Shown: one piece after another, positions 1 to 16,089 of the stretch
Layout: each line of letters begins with the position of its first letter
Numbering within the stretch: the stretch's first letter is position 1
Assembly (NCBI GenBank): GCA_045617905.1
Contig: JAZLJO010000014.1
Span: 72,743-136,742, forward strand
DNA from: Candidatus Enterousia sp.
GTDB taxonomy: Bacteria > Pseudomonadota > Alphaproteobacteria > Rs-D84
Reading direction: 5' to 3'
Length of the DNA: 64,000 bases
Program-made: the position numbers and the translations under genes
The notes under the pieces: model-generated
What the model was told of the DNA's origin: nothing
Database searches by the model: none
The model's input: the letters and a program-made list of their open reading frames with translations, nothing else

Positions 1-336
1 TAATTTACCTTCATCCGTTAATGTGTATGTTTGAACCGTTTCTAAAAATTTGAAATAATCTTGTTCTATTTCCATTTCATTCAAAGGCCCCATCATCATT
101 GTTGATGCAATTGGTCCAAAATTGATTTTATCACCGTTTAATTCATACGTTCCGTTATATAAATTAACGACACGACCATTTACACGCATTTCATCATTGG
201 CAAACGTTAAAACAATATTTGCCCCACGTTCATCGGAAACAAAATTTGTGCCACGCAATGGATTTGCATTATCATTTTGTCCACATGCCGCAACCGTTAA
301 CAATGAAACAGATATTAAGACATTTTTTATATTCAT
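1..336 (-). CDS. META-domain (HslJ-like) lipoprotein, 3'-truncated by window edge
   Basis: Minus-strand ORF missing from the track because it has no in-window stop. ATG at 336 follows AAAGGGG. Signal peptide plus lipobox LTVAAC. META-domain-like pattern NGRVVNLYNGTYEL..GPIASTMMMGP. Confidence 0.5.
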   Translation of the reverse strand, partial: MNIKNVLISVSLLTVAACGQNDNANPLRGTNFVSDERGANIVLTFANDEMRVNGRVVNLYNGTYELNGDKINFGPIASTMMMGPLNEMEIEQDYFKFLETVQTYTLTDEGKL

Positions 337-429
337 TATTTACCCCTTTTCCATAATAAATTGGTTTTATGACACAAATCATACACCAGACAAAAAAATA
401 TGTAAATATGAAATAAATCATAAAAAAAT

Positions 430-457
430 ACGCATCAAACAATGATGCGTATTTTAT
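430..457. terminator. intrinsic terminator hairpin, bidirectional (acgcatca-aacaa-tgatgcgt, flanked by A6/T-run)
   Basis: Perfect 8-bp stem with T tract on both strands, immediately downstream of the minus-strand tRNA-Asp. Confidence 0.5.
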
Positions 458-462
458 AACTG

Positions 463-539
463 TGGCGGGATGTAAGGGGCTCGAACCCTCGACCTTCTGC
501 GTGACAGGCAGACGCTCTAACCAGCTGAGCTAACACCCC
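463..539 (-). tRNA. tRNA-Asp (anticodon GTC)
   Basis: Reverse complement reads GGGGTGTTAGCTCAGCTGGTTAGAGCGTCTGCCTGTCACGCAGAAGGTCGAGGGTTCGAGCCCCTTACATCCCGCCA. Canonical cloverleaf, anticodon loop CUGUCAC, T-loop GGTTCGAGCC, encoded CCA. Confidence 0.85.
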
Positions 540-866
540 AAGCGCTTTATATAATATACTGTTTGAAATATAAATGCAAGTATTTTTTAAAATTTTATCA
601 ATTAATTATACATAATTGTATATCTGAATAAAAAAACATAACCAATAAAATCTAACCAACGTTTTTTATTCATGCAGGAATCATATCACAAAATGCCAGA
701 AATCTCAATCTTTTTGTCTTTAATTATAATAAAAATCTAACGTTCGATTAATCTTTCTTCTAAAACACAAAAATATCCCGATCCACAGGTTGATTGTGAT
801 ATTGCAAATATCGACATTATTGAACGTAATTTACACCCCGATATATTAAAAATATTATTATCGGAC

Positions 867-1721
867 ATGACAACCGGGCATAACATTGTATGGGCATGTG
901 ATGATTATATTATATATGGGAATAAATATAAACCCGGCTGTCAAATCACAAAAGATTTAATCACACACAAAACAAATAAAAACATTATCCAACCACGTAT
1001 TTTAAAAGAAAAGTGTTATCAACGCGAACGCACCAAAACCCATGCCGAGGTTTTTACCCCATCCTGGATATGCAATGAAATGAACAATTATTGTGATGAA
1101 GAATGGTTTGGCAGAAAAGACGTTTTTAACACAGTAAATAATGATAACACATGGACGGCGACAACAACACCAATATATGTCCCGGGTGACAAACAATGGC
1201 ATCAATACGTTTTATCAAAACGAATTGAAATTACCTGTGGCGAGGCCCCGTATTTAGTATCACCATACGACACAACCACAGGAAAAATTATTCCAATTGA
1301 ACAACGTATCGGACAATTGGACCGAAAATTACGTGTAATAAACGAAAATATGAATTCGGAACGTTATTGGTTTGATTGGGCGGCAAAGGCATACCAAAGC
1401 ACATACGGATATGAATTTCAGGGTGATAATTTATTATTGGCACGTGAAAATCTGCTTTATACGTTTATTGATAATTACAAATTTAAATTTGGCAAAGAAC
1501 CAAATATTCAAAAACAAAAGAAAATAGCCCAAATAATCGCATGGAATATGTGGCAAATGAACGGTTTAACAGATTGCACACCGTTCAGTTCTGAATCCGG
1601 CGACTTTTATCAAATGGGCATGTTTGGCAGTGCCCCATTACCATGCCGGATTATTGATTGGGAAAAAAATTTACAAATATTTTTCAAAGATTTAAAAAAG
1701 GAAAACAGCAATGAAATTTGA
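867..1721 (+). CDS. N6-adenine DNA methyltransferase (Eco57I/TaqI-like gamma class), N-terminal fragment; reading frame breaks in an A6 run
   Basis: Motif I-like AEVFTPSWICNEM and an SAM-loop-like IEITCGEAPYL. The frame ends 10 nt after the start of the next ORF, which continues in the +1 frame. Confidence 0.55.
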   Translation: MTTGHNIVWACDDYIIYGNKYKPGCQITKDLITHKTNKNIIQPRILKEKCYQRERTKTHAEVFTPSWICNEMNNYCDEEWFGRKDVFNTVNNDNTWTATTTPIYVPGDKQWHQYVLSKRIEITCGEAPYLVSPYDTTTGKIIPIEQRIGQLDRKLRVINENMNSERYWFDWAAKAYQSTYGYEFQGDNLLLARENLLYTFIDNYKFKFGKEPNIQKQKKIAQIIAWNMWQMNGLTDCTPFSSESGDFYQMGMFGSAPLPCRIIDWEKNLQIFFKDLKKENSNEI

Positions 1722-2724
1722 TTTTTGCATTGGTAATCCACCATATCAGGAAATGAAACAAGATACTTCTGATAAACCTGTTTATGATAAATTTATGATT
1801 GCTTCATATGATATCAGTACTGTTGTAGAATTAATTACACCTGCTAGATTTTTATTTAACGCAGGAAAAACTCAAAAGCACTGGAATGAAAAAATGCTTA
1901 ATGATGAGCATTTTAAAGTTTTGCATTATTTTCCAGATGCAGGCAAGGTATTTCCTAATACAGATATTAAAGGGGGAGTAGCTGTTCATTTATACAACAA
2001 AACTCAAAAATTTGCAGCAACACAAATTTTTACATCATTCATGGAATTAAATAGCATTTTAAACAAGGTCCGTGCAAATGAAAATTTTTTTATAGATTCT
2101 TATGTTTATTCAGAAAGTAGTTATAGGTATACTCAAGAACTTATGAATGAAAAACATGAATTAGTCCAGAGATTAAAAAAATCCAGTCAAAATTTTGTTG
2201 CTTCTAATGCATTTGAAATTCTTCCGGAAATATTTTCTGAAAAAAGGAATGATGATGACATAGAAATAATAGGACGTTTTTGTAATTCTAGAACATCACG
2301 ATTTATAAAAAAGAAATATATCAATGGCCCAGATAATTTTGATAAGTATAAAATATTTTTACCTAAAGCAAATGGTTCAGGAGCATTAGGAGAAATACTT
2401 TCTACTCCACTGATTGGCCATCCACTGATTGGCCATACCCAAACATTTATATCCATAGGATTGTTTGAAAAAGAATCTGAGGCAGAAGCCTGTTTAAAAT
2501 ATATAAAAAGTAAATTTGCAAGAGTTTTGCTAGGTGTCCTTAAAATAACACAAGATAATAAGAAAAATGTTTGGAAGTATGTCCCATTACAAGATTTTAC
2601 AGAAAATTCGGATATAGATTGGTCAAAGTCTATTCATGAAATAGATTTACAATTATATAAAAAATACGGTTTGGATGATGCCGAGATTGATTTTATCGAA
2701 ACACATGTAAGGGAGATGCAGTAA
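1711..2724 (+). CDS. N6-adenine DNA methyltransferase C-terminal fragment (catalytic motif IV NPPY plus target-recognition region)
   Basis: FDFCIGNPPYQ motif IV at the N-terminus. Its frame is open upstream only back to 1696, inside the A6 run (1694-1699). Deleting one A fuses it in frame with 867-1721. Confidence 0.6.
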   Translation: MKFDFCIGNPPYQEMKQDTSDKPVYDKFMIASYDISTVVELITPARFLFNAGKTQKHWNEKMLNDEHFKVLHYFPDAGKVFPNTDIKGGVAVHLYNKTQKFAATQIFTSFMELNSILNKVRANENFFIDSYVYSESSYRYTQELMNEKHELVQRLKKSSQNFVASNAFEILPEIFSEKRNDDDIEIIGRFCNSRTSRFIKKKYINGPDNFDKYKIFLPKANGSGALGEILSTPLIGHPLIGHTQTFISIGLFEKESEAEACLKYIKSKFARVLLGVLKITQDNKKNVWKYVPLQDFTENSDIDWSKSIHEIDLQLYKKYGLDDAEIDFIETHVREMQ

Positions 2725-5700
2725 TGAAAAAACTGAATATCAAAACTCGTTCTGCTGTTGTTCCAATGTGTTATGCATATACCACACCGGAAATACAGCG
2801 ACATAATGGTTGGACAAAAATAGGTTATACTGAAAATGATGTAAAACAACGTATTGCACAGCAAACACAAACCGCGGATGTTCGGACTGTTTTACATTGG
2901 TACGAAAAAGCAATCTATGCAGATGGCAGTGGTGATACTTTTTCTGACAAAGATTTTCATACATATTTAATCAAAAATGATGTTGCGCGTTTAGATAATA
3001 CTGAATGGTTCAAAATATTACCGGATAAATCCCATGATATGTTTTTCGATTTTACTAAAAATCGTGGGGTATTAACCAGTTTTGGCGCAATTGATTATAC
3101 ATTACGCGCAGAACAAGCAAAGGCCGTTCATGATGCCAAAAGATATTTTGATGCTAAAACATCTTTAGATGAACCAGAATTTTTATGGAATGCCAAACCA
3201 AGATTTGGAAAGACATTATCAGCCTATGATTTATGTAAACAATTGGGGGCACAAAAGGTTTTAATTTTAACCAATTATCCTGCGGTCGCAAATTCTTGGT
3301 ATAATGATTATGTTAAATTTTTGGGAACAGAATCCGGATATTATTTCGTTAGCCAGGTCGATGCATTAAAAGGAAAAAAATACGTTTTAAGCCGTGAACA
3401 ATATACAAAACATTTATCAGACCCCAACCATAAGGGATGTATTGAATTTATATCGCTGCAGGATTTAAAAGGATCCAGATATTTTGGTGGACAATACGAT
3501 AAATTACAGGAAGTGGCCACGATAAAATGGGATTTGTTAATTATTGATGAAGCACATTATGCCGTAGATACATTTAAATCCGGTATTGCTTTTGATCATA
3601 TACAACGAAAATACACATTACATTTATCTGGCACCCCGTTCAAAGCCATTGCAAATATGAAATTTGATAACGATGCCATATTCAATTGGACATATGTTGA
3701 TGAACAAACCGCAAAACGTAACTGGCCAAAATATAGCGAAGAAGAAAATCCATATGCTGTGATGCCACAACTAAATATGTACACATATCAAATGTCCGAT
3801 ATTGTGCGCGATAAATTACAACACGGTGCAGATTTTGATAATGATGGTGAAGACGAGGCGTATGCATTTGATTTGAACGAATTTTTTATAACAAATGCAG
3901 ATGGAAATTTTAAACACGACGAATCTGTTGATAAATTTTTGAATGCACTGGTTACACAAACCCGTTTCCCATTCTCTACACCTGAATTACGTAATGAATT
4001 AAATCATACATTCTGGTTATTACAATATGTTGACAGTTGTAAAGCATTAGCTAAAAAGTTAAAAGAACATCCCGTATTTAAAGAATACGAGATTGTACTG
4101 GCTGCTGGTGATGGCAGACTAGATGAAGAAGAAGCAAGTATAAAAGCATACGATAAGGTTGTTAAGGCAATAAAAGAACACGATAAAACCATTACATTAT
4201 CCGTTCGTCAACTGGCAACCGGTATCACAATTCCGGAATGGACAGCAGTATTGATGTTAGGTAACATGAAAACGCCTGAATTATATATGCAGGCTGCATT
4301 TCGTGCACAAAATCCATGCTTGTTTAAAACAAAAGATGGCAAATTGCAACGGAAAGAAAATGCATATGTATTTGATTTTGATCCATCCAGAACATTAACT
4401 GTGTTTGATGACTTTGCAAACAATAACCATTCTGGGACTGCTGGGGGACGTGGCGATACAGATACACGAAAAAAACAAATAAAAGAACTTTTAAACTTCT
4501 TTCCTGTATATGGCGAAGATGATAGTGGTGAAATGATATCGTTGGATCCAGAAAAGGTTTTGACGATACCACGCAAAATTCACGCCAAAGAAGTGGTTCA
4601 TCGTGGTTTTATGAGTAACTTCTTATTCCAAAACATACATAATTTATTCAATGCCCCACAAAGCGTAATCGATGCCGTTAATAATATTGCAGCGGTTAAA
4701 GAACCAACAACAATTACCCCTAAAACAGGCGAATCATTGAATATTAATCCAGAAACCGGCGACATTGAAATACCACAAGAAACTGTTGTTGGGTTGGCCA
4801 CAGATGTATTTGGCGAAAAAATTTATGGCAAACAAGAAATTGAATCAAACAAACAACCTGCCATAAATATTCCAGACAACATAAACAAAAATTCTGTTTT
4901 AGATGAAATGAAACAGGATTGTAAAAATAATGTAATAACACCTTTAATAGATAAAGCAAAAGAAAAATACGGCAAAGATGTAACGAAAACTACAATACAA
5001 TCTATCGAAAAAAAAGCTGTTGCTGCGGCTGATTTCGAAATTAATAAAATTTATGCTGATCACCAAATTGAAAAATCCACATTAGAATCACAAAGACAAG
5101 ACGCAATTGCTGTTGCATTAACCAAAGACGACAAAAAAACCGTAGAATTACTGTATGACGCAAAACAGGCAGAATTAGATCAACAATTCAAACAAACAGT
5201 TGCAGAAAAAGAGAAAGAAATAATAAAGCAAACCTGTGAAACGATTGTTACGCAGATTGAAATTAATAAAAATAATAAAGAAAAAAATAAAAAAGAAGAC
5301 GAAATACGCGACCATTTACGTGGTTTTGCACGCAGTATACCGGCGTTTTTGATGGCATATGGGGATGAAAATACCACATTGGAAAATTTTGACACTATTA
5401 TTCCCGCCAATGTTTTTCAAGAGGTCACTGGTATAACGCTGGATCAATTTATAATGTTACGCGATGGTGCAGATTATTTTGATGAACAGACCGGTACTAC
5501 CCAGCATTTTGAAGGACATTTATTTGACCCTATTGTTTTTAATGATTCTGTTATCGAATTTTTAAATAAAAAACAAAACTTGGCAAACTATTTTGATGAA
5601 AATAATACAGAAGATATTTTTGATTACATTCCACCACAAAAAACCAACCAAATATTTACACCCAAAAAGGTTGTGAAAGAAATGGTTAATTATTTGGAAC

Positions 5701-6038
5701 AAGAAAATCCCGGATGTTTTGATGACCCAAATAAGACTTTTATCGACCTGTATATGAAATCAGGTTTGTATATAACAGAAATTGTTAAACGCCTATATAA
5801 TAGTATCGGGTTAAAATCTGCATATCCCAACGGGGCGGAAAGATTAAGACATATATTTGAAAAACAAATATACGGACTTGCCCCAACAGAAATTATATAT
5901 CGTATTGCAACAAATTATATTTTGGGTTTTGATAAAACATCACAAATAACAAAACATAATTTAAAAATGTTTGACACATTACCTTCGGCCCAAAAAGGAA
6001 CACTTGAACAGGATTTAGATAATGTTTTTAAAAATTAA
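2724..6038 (+). CDS. defence-type fusion protein: N-terminal T5orf172/GIY-YIG-like domain + SF2 (DEAH) helicase + coiled-coil linker + C-terminal methyltransferase motif-I fragment (no NPPY)
   Basis: GWTKIGYTEN...RLDNTEWF (T5orf172 signature ending EWF). Walker A RFGKTLSAY, motif II LLIIDEAHY, motif III LHLSGTP, motif VI QAAFRAQNP. C-terminal QIFTPKKVVKEMV...FIDLYMKSGLY resembles Eco57I-family motifs X/I. Start overlaps the previous stop (ATGA). Confidence 0.6.
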   Translation: MKKLNIKTRSAVVPMCYAYTTPEIQRHNGWTKIGYTENDVKQRIAQQTQTADVRTVLHWYEKAIYADGSGDTFSDKDFHTYLIKNDVARLDNTEWFKILPDKSHDMFFDFTKNRGVLTSFGAIDYTLRAEQAKAVHDAKRYFDAKTSLDEPEFLWNAKPRFGKTLSAYDLCKQLGAQKVLILTNYPAVANSWYNDYVKFLGTESGYYFVSQVDALKGKKYVLSREQYTKHLSDPNHKGCIEFISLQDLKGSRYFGGQYDKLQEVATIKWDLLIIDEAHYAVDTFKSGIAFDHIQRKYTLHLSGTPFKAIANMKFDNDAIFNWTYVDEQTAKRNWPKYSEEENPYAVMPQLNMYTYQMSDIVRDKLQHGADFDNDGEDEAYAFDLNEFFITNADGNFKHDESVDKFLNALVTQTRFPFSTPELRNELNHTFWLLQYVDSCKALAKKLKEHPVFKEYEIVLAAGDGRLDEEEASIKAYDKVVKAIKEHDKTITLSVRQLATGITIPEWTAVLMLGNMKTPELYMQAAFRAQNPCLFKTKDGKLQRKENAYVFDFDPSRTLTVFDDFANNNHSGTAGGRGDTDTRKKQIKELLNFFPVYGEDDSGEMISLDPEKVLTIPRKIHAKEVVHRGFMSNFLFQNIHNLFNAPQSVIDAVNNIAAVKEPTTITPKTGESLNINPETGDIEIPQETVVGLATDVFGEKIYGKQEIESNKQPAINIPDNINKNSVLDEMKQDCKNNVITPLIDKAKEKYGKDVTKTTIQSIEKKAVAAADFEINKIYADHQIEKSTLESQRQDAIAVALTKDDKKTVELLYDAKQAELDQQFKQTVAEKEKEIIKQTCETIVTQIEINKNNKEKNKKEDEIRDHLRGFARSIPAFLMAYGDENTTLENFDTIIPANVFQEVTGITLDQFIMLRDGADYFDEQTGTTQHFEGHLFDPIVFNDSVIEFLNKKQNLANYFDENNTEDIFDYIPPQKTNQIFTPKKVVKEMVNYLEQENPGCFDDPNKTFIDLYMKSGLYITEIVKRLYNSIGLKSAYPNGAERLRHIFEKQIYGLAPTEIIYRIATNYILGFDKTSQITKHNLKMFDTLPSAQKGTLEQDLDNVFKN

Positions 6039-8884: not shown

Positions 8885-8967
8885 ACTGCCAGTTTAAAAT
8901 ATTTTTTATATGCGTTCAATACAAAATATGATATAATATACCAGATTAATTTATGGGGAAAAAATCA

Positions 8968-10092
8968 ATGAAAACAAAAATCATATATATTTCAGGCAGT
9001 GAATTTTTTGACATGTCCGATATCCGGACCGCATTTGAACAGGTTCGGACCGCTGCATCTTTGCCAACAGACACCGTATTATTTGGCATCCCCGTTGATT
9101 CTGATGACGCATTGGCAACAATTAATACCAATAATATAAAAATTTCAATATCAAACGAAACAAATAAAATGGACGAAAATCCCCAAACAAACGTCCCAGA
9201 AATTACCGAGAATACAATTACATCTGACATAACAGATAATGATAATAATAATAATAATACAATTTCACAAAACGACCAGGTATCTGTTACAGACACAGAC
9301 ACCCCAAAGGTCCCTAAGAAATCCCGTCGTCGTATAAAAACAGAATCGGAACCTGTTTTAAATCATAAAGATACCCCACACACAGTTGACGATACAGATA
9401 TCACATCCATTTCAACAACAGACGCCACACCCGTTCCAATTTTATCGGTATTGGCAAAACATAACAATAACACAGAATCTGTTTCACAATCTGACGCCAC
9501 AGATATTCCAGATTATAAACCAACATCAGGAATCGTTTCAGAAACATCTGAAACAATTGATGATTCAAACGATGTTGAACAAAATACAATCGAACAATCC
9601 CAAAAAAATCCAATATCAATTGATGAAGAAATTGTTGCTAACGATCCCGACACAATAAACCAAATTGAAAATATTGCCGATAAAATCGCGGAAAATCCAC
9701 CAATGGAAATAACAACATTGGAAGAATTACTGGATGGGATGGAACCATTAAGTGAATTTCATGAGACAAAACAATCTATAGTTTCATGGGACGAATCTTC
9801 AACTGAAAACACAACAACATATCAAACCACCGACGCAACAACCGAAGATGGAACCGATATGACATTAGAAAAATTGGCCAAAGATTTATTAAACAGTGAA
9901 AATCAGTATTCCGAAACACCACATGAATCCCACAGTAAAATCGGCAAATTAAAAAACATATTACCATTTAAAAAAGCCAAACGCGATGATTCTGGCATAA
10001 TGGGTATGGGCGATTTATTCGGATGGGCAGGCGTGGCAAATGATGACGATTTTACCATGCCAGGATTTTTCACCAGCACATCTAAAAAATAA
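8968..10092 (+). CDS. hypothetical acidic, Asn/Asp/Thr/Ser-rich, largely disordered protein with a structured N-terminal ~60 aa
   Basis: ORF with GGGGA 9 nt upstream of the ATG at 8968 (track starts it at 8953). Low-complexity poly-N and acidic tracts. No recognisable domain. Confidence 0.45.
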   Translation: MKTKIIYISGSEFFDMSDIRTAFEQVRTAASLPTDTVLFGIPVDSDDALATINTNNIKISISNETNKMDENPQTNVPEITENTITSDITDNDNNNNNTISQNDQVSVTDTDTPKVPKKSRRRIKTESEPVLNHKDTPHTVDDTDITSISTTDATPVPILSVLAKHNNNTESVSQSDATDIPDYKPTSGIVSETSETIDDSNDVEQNTIEQSQKNPISIDEEIVANDPDTINQIENIADKIAENPPMEITTLEELLDGMEPLSEFHETKQSIVSWDESSTENTTTYQTTDATTEDGTDMTLEKLAKDLLNSENQYSETPHESHSKIGKLKNILPFKKAKRDDSGIMGMGDLFGWAGVANDDDFTMPGFFTSTSKK

Positions 10093-15874: not shown

Positions 15875-16089
15875 CAAATTACTTCAGTTTATGGACTTTG
15901 TTGTTTTCCATAATTGTTGTCCGAATAATTAACCCAATAAAGCGTGGGACGAACCGAAATCCGTCCCAATAAACAATTAAAGGGTAATTATCCGCAGTCC
16001 GAGCCGTAACTCGAATCAACGAATCTCTATTTTACACGTCTGGCGTATACACTGTATACTAAATCACGTGTATTTATTTCTGGTATTAT

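Follow-up and report, generated by a model that had tools for sequence, protein, structure and literature searches.

A single-base indel at the joint between two modules of a predicted Eco57I-family methyltransferase in Candidatus Enterousia: a candidate tolerated gene fission

A 64,000-nucleotide stretch of Candidatus Enterousia sp. DNA (contig JAZLJO010000014.1, positions 72,743 to 136,742; referred to below as the window) carries a predicted restriction-modification (R-M) operon in which a frameshift divides the methyltransferase (MTase) gene into two overlapping open reading frames (ORFs). We see about an even chance that this frameshift amounts to a tolerated fission where two modules naturally join, or else that the unbroken gene of a sister genome is a fusion, and that the locus is neither a switch nor a dead gene. 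All genes of the operon lie on the forward strand. ORF1 (867-1721, frame 0, 284 amino acids (aa)) matches the PADLOC profile PDLC03390 (E=1e-96) and overlaps by 11 nucleotides (nt) with ORF2 (1711-2724, frame +1, 337 aa), which matches PDLC03375 and the C-terminus of PDLC03626. ORF3 (2724-6038, 1104 aa) encodes the putative restriction subunit, and its ATG shares one nucleotide with the stop codon of ORF2 (TAATG). The overlapping MTase ORFs had been noticed in a sequence-only reading of the window, which placed the frameshift within a run of six A residues and considered phase variation, early pseudogenisation or a sequencing error; the ORF calls agree with the overlap. As a mutation the frameshift is ordinary, a one-base indel; of interest are its position and the modularity of the protein family.

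Removal of one base anywhere in 1696-1710 results in a continuous protein of 618 aa, as had been predicted for a one-base deletion. The frame of ORF2 opens after a TAA at 1693-1695, and the last seven codons of ORF1 (ENSNEI and the TGA at 1719-1721) form an out-of-frame tail. Each of the best 120 homologues of the rejoined protein among 5.8 billion clusters is one unbroken protein, 525-752 aa in length, and in 118 cases the match extends over at least 99% of the rejoined sequence; the typical homologue is a single Eco57I-family N6-methyladenine (m6A) MTase of about 650 aa. The earlier claim of a +1 frameshift that splits a normally single MTase gene was thus confirmed.

The site of the indel was determined by comparison with the metagenome-assembled genome GCA_024402715.1 (Alphaproteobacteria bacterium), called the sister here, which was reached via the 90% protein cluster of ORF1. 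This cluster contains P0127 (MCQ2599378.1), an unbroken protein of the sister comprising both MTase halves, while exact protein look-up of ORF2 and ORF3 gave no match. The sister contigs are 98.5-98.7% identical to the window (98.5% over window positions 1-1759), and the context from tRNA-Asp to parC is common to both. At the junction the sister reads TTAAAAAAGG-AAACAGCAATG (longer stretch GATTTAAAAAAGG-AAACAGCAATG) and the window TTAAAAAAGGAAAACAGCAATG (longer stretch GATTTAAAAAAGGAAAACAGCAATG). The run AAAAAA at 1694-1699, which had been reported correctly and encodes Lys-Lys (AAA AAG), is the same in both genomes, and therefore the extra base sits in the adjoining run, with A3 in the sister (GGAAAC) and A4 in the window (GGAAAAC, 1702-1705). 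The comparison with orthologous loci that had been proposed earlier thus yielded an intact gene in the sister, but no frame change inside A6. Likewise, the rejoined junction KDLKRKTAMKFDF (KDLKRKTAMKF) derived from a shortened A6 does not occur in the intact orthologue P0127, which has KDLKKETAMKFDF at this position. The extra base lies downstream of a Shine-Dalgarno (SD)-like AAGGA (1697-1701) and lengthens the spacer between this motif and the ATG of ORF2, which measures 9 nt in the window compared to 8 nt in the sister.

Start signals at this position are a general property of the family. A Met located 6-11 residues before GNPPY (MKFDFVIGNPPY and variants) is present in 119 of 121 fused homologues; one of the exceptions (L075) was checked at the DNA level and has GTG, and two Akkermansia loci have ATA or ATC instead of the junction ATG. 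The sequence preceding the junction ATG was analysed in 59 fused genome loci from different species (among L002, L003 and L009-L088), with 700 other in-frame ATGs of the same genes as control and a match of at least 4 nt located 4-20 nt upstream of the ATG counted as SD-like. Such a motif precedes the junction ATG in 49 of the 59 loci (83%) but only 15% of the controls (Fisher P=4e-27), and matches of at least 6 nt precede 32% of junction ATGs versus 1% of the other in-frame ATGs. Nine of the ten loci without an SD-like motif belong to Prevotella, Bacteroidaceae or Bacteroidales, and their linker is A-rich instead; the tenth is from Selenomonadaceae (L022). The phylum of Prevotella and Bacteroidales largely lacks SD-led initiation. 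In 48 loci the SD match had a mean length of 5.0 nt, compared to 3.2 nt in synonymous-codon shuffles (Wilcoxon P=4e-8). These results indicate that the nucleotides upstream of the junction Met are under selection to resemble a ribosome-binding site.

The same position is a joint in the predicted structure. In an AlphaFold2 (AF2) model of the rejoined protein the junction Met lies directly before the strand formed by residues 284-290 (FDFCIGN, beta4), so that the joint separates two modules: in the model, the half predicted to bind S-adenosylmethionine (AdoMet) is divided from beta4, the NPPY motif and the target-recognition domain (TRD). ORF2 opens exactly at this Met, with MKFDFCIG corresponding to strand beta4, followed by NPPY (1735-1746), the TRD and the conserved C-terminus. 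For the comparison of loci we therefore distinguish the modules N (the AdoMet half; ORF1), C (beta4-NPPY and TRD; ORF2) and R-N' (the nuclease-helicase; ORF3).

Three arrangements of these modules were found. Arrangement A, a fused N-C protein plus R-N', is present in 74 of 80 species-representative loci and additionally in L002 and the sister; in 39 loci the next gene downstream is an R ORF of 1095-1216 aa. Arrangement B, with N, C and R-N' encoded separately, was found in the remaining six (L064, L078, L079, L086, L087 and L068). All six retain the junction Met, and their halves align without further frame breaks, as a single tblastn high-scoring segment pair per half or as one such pair spanning an in-frame stop. 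The closest N-half relatives of the window, L064 (Alphaproteobacteria bacterium SIG46) and L078 (Ca. Enterousia sp.), with 81-82% aa identity, are among these split loci; their junction reads ...AAG GAC TAA CG ATG... (KKD, then the stop), and N, C and an R of 1117 aa are intact. Between their N-halves the synonymous rate is dS=0.32 and the non-synonymous rate dN=0.011, and the resulting dN/dS of 0.035 indicates purifying selection on the N-half in the split state. The split state thus appears to be selectively maintained in L064 and L078, while the window's own allele is one observation. Arrangement B is also represented by L006, L007 and L008 (ENA and Logan contigs), in which a Bro-N gene lies between N and C. 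In L006 this gene (1147-2064, 305 aa) is placed exactly between the halves and overlaps the ATG of the C-half by 11 nt (..ENEI*). The geometry of the window, with the ORF1 stop at 1719-1721, the ORF2 ATG at 1711 and AAGGA 9 nt upstream, is comparable to that of L064, L078, L079, L086, L068, L087 and L006.

In arrangement C, N stands alone and C is attached to the restriction subunit (R-N'-C). This is seen in L090 (3997-8975; GCA_948585055.1), where the N-half has 333 aa, shares 46% identity with ORF1 and terminates at the linker; directly downstream lies a helicase-N'-C protein of 1324 aa, whose last ~340 aa are the C-half. With entries in 268 blocks of the collection, the 1324-aa protein is common. 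Of the best 150 C-half representatives, stand-alone proteins that begin at Met1 account for about 36 and R-N'-C fusions of 1260-1560 aa for about 44. Cultured carriers of the family include Allobaculum mucilyticum 128, Peptoniphilus senegalensis JC140, Selenomonas infelix ATCC 43532 and Prevotella amnii DSM 23384.

Taken as a tolerated fission, the locus would be a three-module R-M system consisting of N, C and an R-N' with a T5orf172 nuclease-like domain, a superfamily 2 (SF2) helicase and a degenerate N-like domain. N and C are fused in most relatives, with C retaining a predicted internal ribosome-binding site and ATG, and the extra A (A3 to A4) falls into the 8-nt spacer between the SD motif (AAGGA) and this ATG. 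As the alignment shows, the extra base only uncouples N from C, which keeps its native start with the SD motif at 9 nt; at the level of predicted genes it turns arrangement A into arrangement B and leaves the start signals of C untouched. By analogy with the species that have separate genes, both halves would still assemble into an active enzyme, and it is on this premise that the fission would be tolerated.

The assignment of the MTase is based on motifs, profiles and the structural model. PF07669 (Eco57I) matches the start of ORF2 (E=2.9e-14; 54 bits, cutoff 25.3; profile positions 73-171 of 171) and scores 55.8 bits on the rejoined protein, above the gathering score, while a Pfam scan of ORF1 gave no match and an NCBIfam search nothing useful. 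Motif X (FTP, 1053-1061, ORF1 aa 63-65), a motif-I-like EITCGEAPYL (1227-1256, ORF1 aa 121-130) and motif IV (NPPY, ORF2 aa 9-12) are followed by a C-terminal TRD. This is the gamma-class order, here spread over two ORFs, and motifs I and IV stand in the correct order as stated by the earlier reading. The AF2 model has a mean pLDDT (predicted local distance difference test) of 73.5, with high values over residues 60-230. Foldseek searches with this model retrieved CamA, BrxX/PglX, M.BseCI, LlaBIII/LlaGI, DrdV, MmeI and BpuSI with probability 1.0 and E values of 6e-10 to 6e-4, at TM-scores of only ~0.3, and a sequence profile of the family matched no chain of the PDB at E≤1. According to these data the rejoined protein is predicted to be a gamma-class N6-adenine DNA MTase of the Eco57I family.

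ORF3 matches T5orf172 (GIY-YIG-like), ResIII and Helicase_C (SF2 helicase) in Pfam; the T5orf172 match covers the N-terminus (E=4e-4; 21.3 bits, cutoff 20), which does not match Mrr. The protein is collinear with residues 1-973 of the R-N'-C fusion P0135 and ends where MKFDVVIGNPPY of P0135 begins. At its C-terminus (5646-6035, aa ~975-1104) lies a domain with the FTP motif, in which motif I is degenerate (FIDLYMKSGLY; FLDPNSKSGLF in P0135). No Pfam or PADLOC match was obtained for the C-terminal 200-300 aa even at E≤10, and a direct comparison with the N-half aligned only the 20 columns around the FTP motif (hhalign probability 40%; BLASTP E=0.002). N' is thus interpreted as the remnant of an MTase half because of its collinearity with P0135, not because of direct homology to N, and at the sequence level the link of N' to an MTase half is weak. 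Overall, ORF3 resembles a Type ISP-like enzyme that lacks the C-half.

Within ORF2 a cassette of 815 bp (1753-2567) is ~72% identical to the sister or unalignable, while both flanks are 98-100% identical; no informative differences between window and sister occur in the stretch between frameshift and cassette (1706-1752). The cassette corresponds to the TRD, and the difference is best described as a predicted recombinational specificity swap like those of the mod alleles of Type III systems. The sister contigs L003 (11750-11804) and L004 (1-55) meet inside the MTase gene with an identical overlap of 55 nt, a break of the assembly graph at the conserved 3' flank of the cassette; this suggests that several cassette alleles are present in the sister's metagenome.

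C occurs both with N and with R-N' and has a conserved internal start, and these two features point to a C-half that is produced as a separate protein and used by both partners. We propose tentatively, as a possibility and not as an expectation, that the C-half is translated from the conserved internal SD motif and ATG even when it is fused, and that it acts as a shared module which completes the Rossmann fold of N for methylation and docks on N' to direct restriction. In the literature no description was found of the C-half as a module shared by methylating and restricting partners; the nearest precedents are M.AquI and M.EcoHK31I, C5 MTases made of two chains, and internal initiation in mcrB. 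If true, this would amount to a Type-I-like division of labour by means of a split MTase fold, with the frameshift of the window as one natural state of a fusion/fission polymorphism. It would also explain how modification and restriction stay matched in specificity within a large, uncharacterised and horizontally mobile family that is widespread in gut bacteria, and how the swap of a single 815-bp cassette can retarget the whole system.

The sequence-only reading had suggested that slipped-strand mispairing in A6 switches the MTase reversibly ON and OFF, and the adjoining A4 could be considered for the same role. R-M MTases are classical phase-variable genes, the frame break adjoins an A run, and at this run the more distant locus L001 has A7. 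Nevertheless, we consider phase variation very improbable. The indel lies outside A6, a run that is equally long in the window, the sister, L064 and L078, so that no frame change within a length-variable tract was found. A survey of phase-variable mod genes required mononucleotide tracts of at least 9 bases, and the shortest tracts shown to switch comprise 7-8 (PMC5909438), more than the runs of six (1694-1699) and four (1702-1705) present here. Runs of such length are also common: the 64-kb window contains 123 A-runs and 103 T-runs of at least six bases (226 in all, one per ~280 bp), and the M-R operon alone 17 such A-runs. A DNA pattern of the junction with variable A-run lengths had 0 matches in metagenome contigs of the Joint Genome Institute (JGI) and so gave no tract lengths from a population. 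Furthermore, the C-half would be produced in either frame because it has its own start. The switch is already largely refuted. We find it scarcely credible that programmed recoding, by ribosomal frameshifting or transcriptional slippage, remakes the fused protein. In the frame of ORF1 the sequence A_AAA_AAG (1694-1700) forms the dnaX-type -1 slippery heptamer, but a -1 shift leads into the third frame with a stop at TGA 1712-1714 (GKQQ*), and ORF1 can be joined to ORF2 only by a +1 shift, for which a known signal is absent. The heptamer is moreover not kept across the family (L002: TTAAAAGGAG). We rejected dnaX-like -1 frameshifting since the heptamer leads into the wrong frame, and transcriptional slippage since the tract is too short; to our knowledge, A6 is below the length of tracts known for such slippage. 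A -1 slip at the heptamer in the fused gene of the sister would lead to a product of the N-half only, terminated at the same TGA.

Several observations weigh against a tolerated fission, and some of them support either decay or an error in the assembly. In the outgroups L064 and L078 the split lies in another frame, and as aligned these loci do not appear to show whether the window underwent a fission or the sister a fusion. In natural splits N stops cleanly before the ATG, while N of the window runs 11 nt into ORF2 with its out-of-frame tail, and the split allele of the window occurs only once among 15 billion proteins. The ancestral start codon of N has been lost, which is readable as incipient decay: the ~26 codons 5' of the ORF1 ATG (783-866; VDCDIANIDIIERNLHPDILKILLSD) are still open and in frame and form a remnant homologous to the conserved N-terminus of the family, yet they contain no ATG, GTG or TTG. 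The ancestral start MDADCDIAGIDIIER is found in L078, L064 and L001, while window and sister both read ..PQVDCDIANIDIIER, which implies a loss before their divergence. An early pseudogene, in which the frameshift would be a recent inactivating event and the first or second lesion in the reduced genome of a gut symbiont, would account for this loss and for a disruption that is strain-specific, the gene of the sister (P0127) being intact. The nearest named relatives (Ca. Enterousia, order Rs-D84) indeed have genomes of <1 Mb, and the ~80%-identical N-half of L001 (Logan SRR34436978, 1312-3295) is frameshifted around residue 103. L001 has its junction in frame and, like L002, a resolvase gene upstream. 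We nevertheless regard a pseudogene as unlikely, since N, C and R are of full length apart from the frameshift, the window operon shows no further stops or frameshifts, and R would be harmful or useless next to a dead M. The break is not placed at random among ~1850 coding bases but lies exactly in the SD-ATG spacer at the module joint, and the split forms L064 and L078 are under purifying selection. Compared to the sister, the N-half shows 5 synonymous and 1 non-synonymous changes, which argues for constraint after the loss of the start codon, and R shows 5 synonymous and 2 non-synonymous changes (2 aa differences from the sister's P0122); the changes since the frameshift are too few to gauge constraint.

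There is also a small chance that the extra A is a sequencing or assembly artefact, the true run being A3 and the gene fused as in the sister. A single-base homopolymer indel has the typical look of an assembly error, the allele is known from one contig only, and the region adjoins the cassette, which varies within metagenomes and interrupts the sister assembly. However, A3 to A4 is short for a systematic homopolymer error, and among the six indels in the ~15 kb shared with the sister the one at 1702-1705 is the sole out-of-frame coding indel. Four of the six are single bases in non-coding sequence, as expected of real variation: homopolymer length differences in intergenic regions at 347 (T4/T3), 422 (A7/A6) and 630 (A7/A8), and one non-homopolymer base at 15875, at the very edge of the alignment. 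The first three lie 5' of the MTase and around the gene for tRNA-Asp(GTC) (463-539, reverse strand; ARAGORN), which flanks the M-R operon on the left and has the same context in the sister (L003 9596-9672). The remaining difference is an in-frame 9-nt difference in the length of an (AAT)3 repeat at 9242-9250, within an ORF (8953-10092) for an Asn/Asp/Thr-rich low-complexity protein. A pseudogene and an artefact alike leave unexplained why the break falls exactly between a conserved internal SD motif and its ATG, where relatives are stably split. Annotation pipelines will label such a locus a frameshifted pseudogene, and readers may take it for a phase-variable gene; by the comparative data neither label is safe, because the family appears to be built of modules that work fused or apart.

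Compared with known systems, the rejoined MTase shares the gamma-class m6A MTase fold with C-terminal TRD with Type ISP and Type IIG-IIL enzymes (LlaGI, LlaBIII, MmeI, DrdV, BpuSI) and with CamA, BrxX/PglX and M.BseCI. The relatives of 1260-1560 aa, which PADLOC labels REase_MTase_IIG, also resemble Type ISP enzymes in uniting a nuclease, an SF2 helicase, an MTase and a TRD on a single chain. Unlike Type ISP enzymes, which are single polypeptides with an N-terminal Mrr nuclease, the window distributes this chain over three ORFs, single chains being found only in distant relatives such as P0135 and P0143; its nuclease-like domain is T5orf172 and not Mrr or PD-(D/E)xK, and R is without NPPY and TRD of its own. 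The operon differs from Type III R-M systems in that the MTase is gamma-class and Eco57I-like and not a beta-class Mod. R matches the ResIII helicase, but has T5orf172 at the N-terminus and an MTase-like remnant at the C-terminus, whereas Res carries a C-terminal PD-(D/E)xK. With phase-variable mod genes the locus shares conserved 5' and 3' ends around a swappable central TRD allele (allele definition in PMC5909438) and a frame break adjoining a homopolymer; it differs by its constant tract below switching length and by an indel outside this tract.

In M.AquI and M.EcoHK31I, and likewise in fragment complementation of split MTases, one catalytic fold is formed from two separately translated chains, encoded by split genes that are adjacent or overlapping (PMC3404938). 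These are, however, C5-cytosine MTases in which the division comes after motif VIII or at motif IX, whereas the N6-adenine Rossmann fold of the window is split just before beta4 and motif IV, and its family occurs fused, split or with the C-half on the restriction subunit. The DnmA(YeeA)-YeeB-YeeC operon on a mobile island of B. subtilis combines an MmeI-like m6A MTase, an SF2 helicase and a T5orf172 protein (PMC9973331). Compared by description and not by homology, it differs in that helicase and T5orf172 are separate proteins and DnmA is a complete MTase, and neither module sharing nor an internal start is described there. A functional internal start is known from mcrB, where it yields a C-terminal short form that can assemble with its partner (PMC12707154); McrB belongs to an unrelated family, its short form is regulatory, and no MTase is involved.

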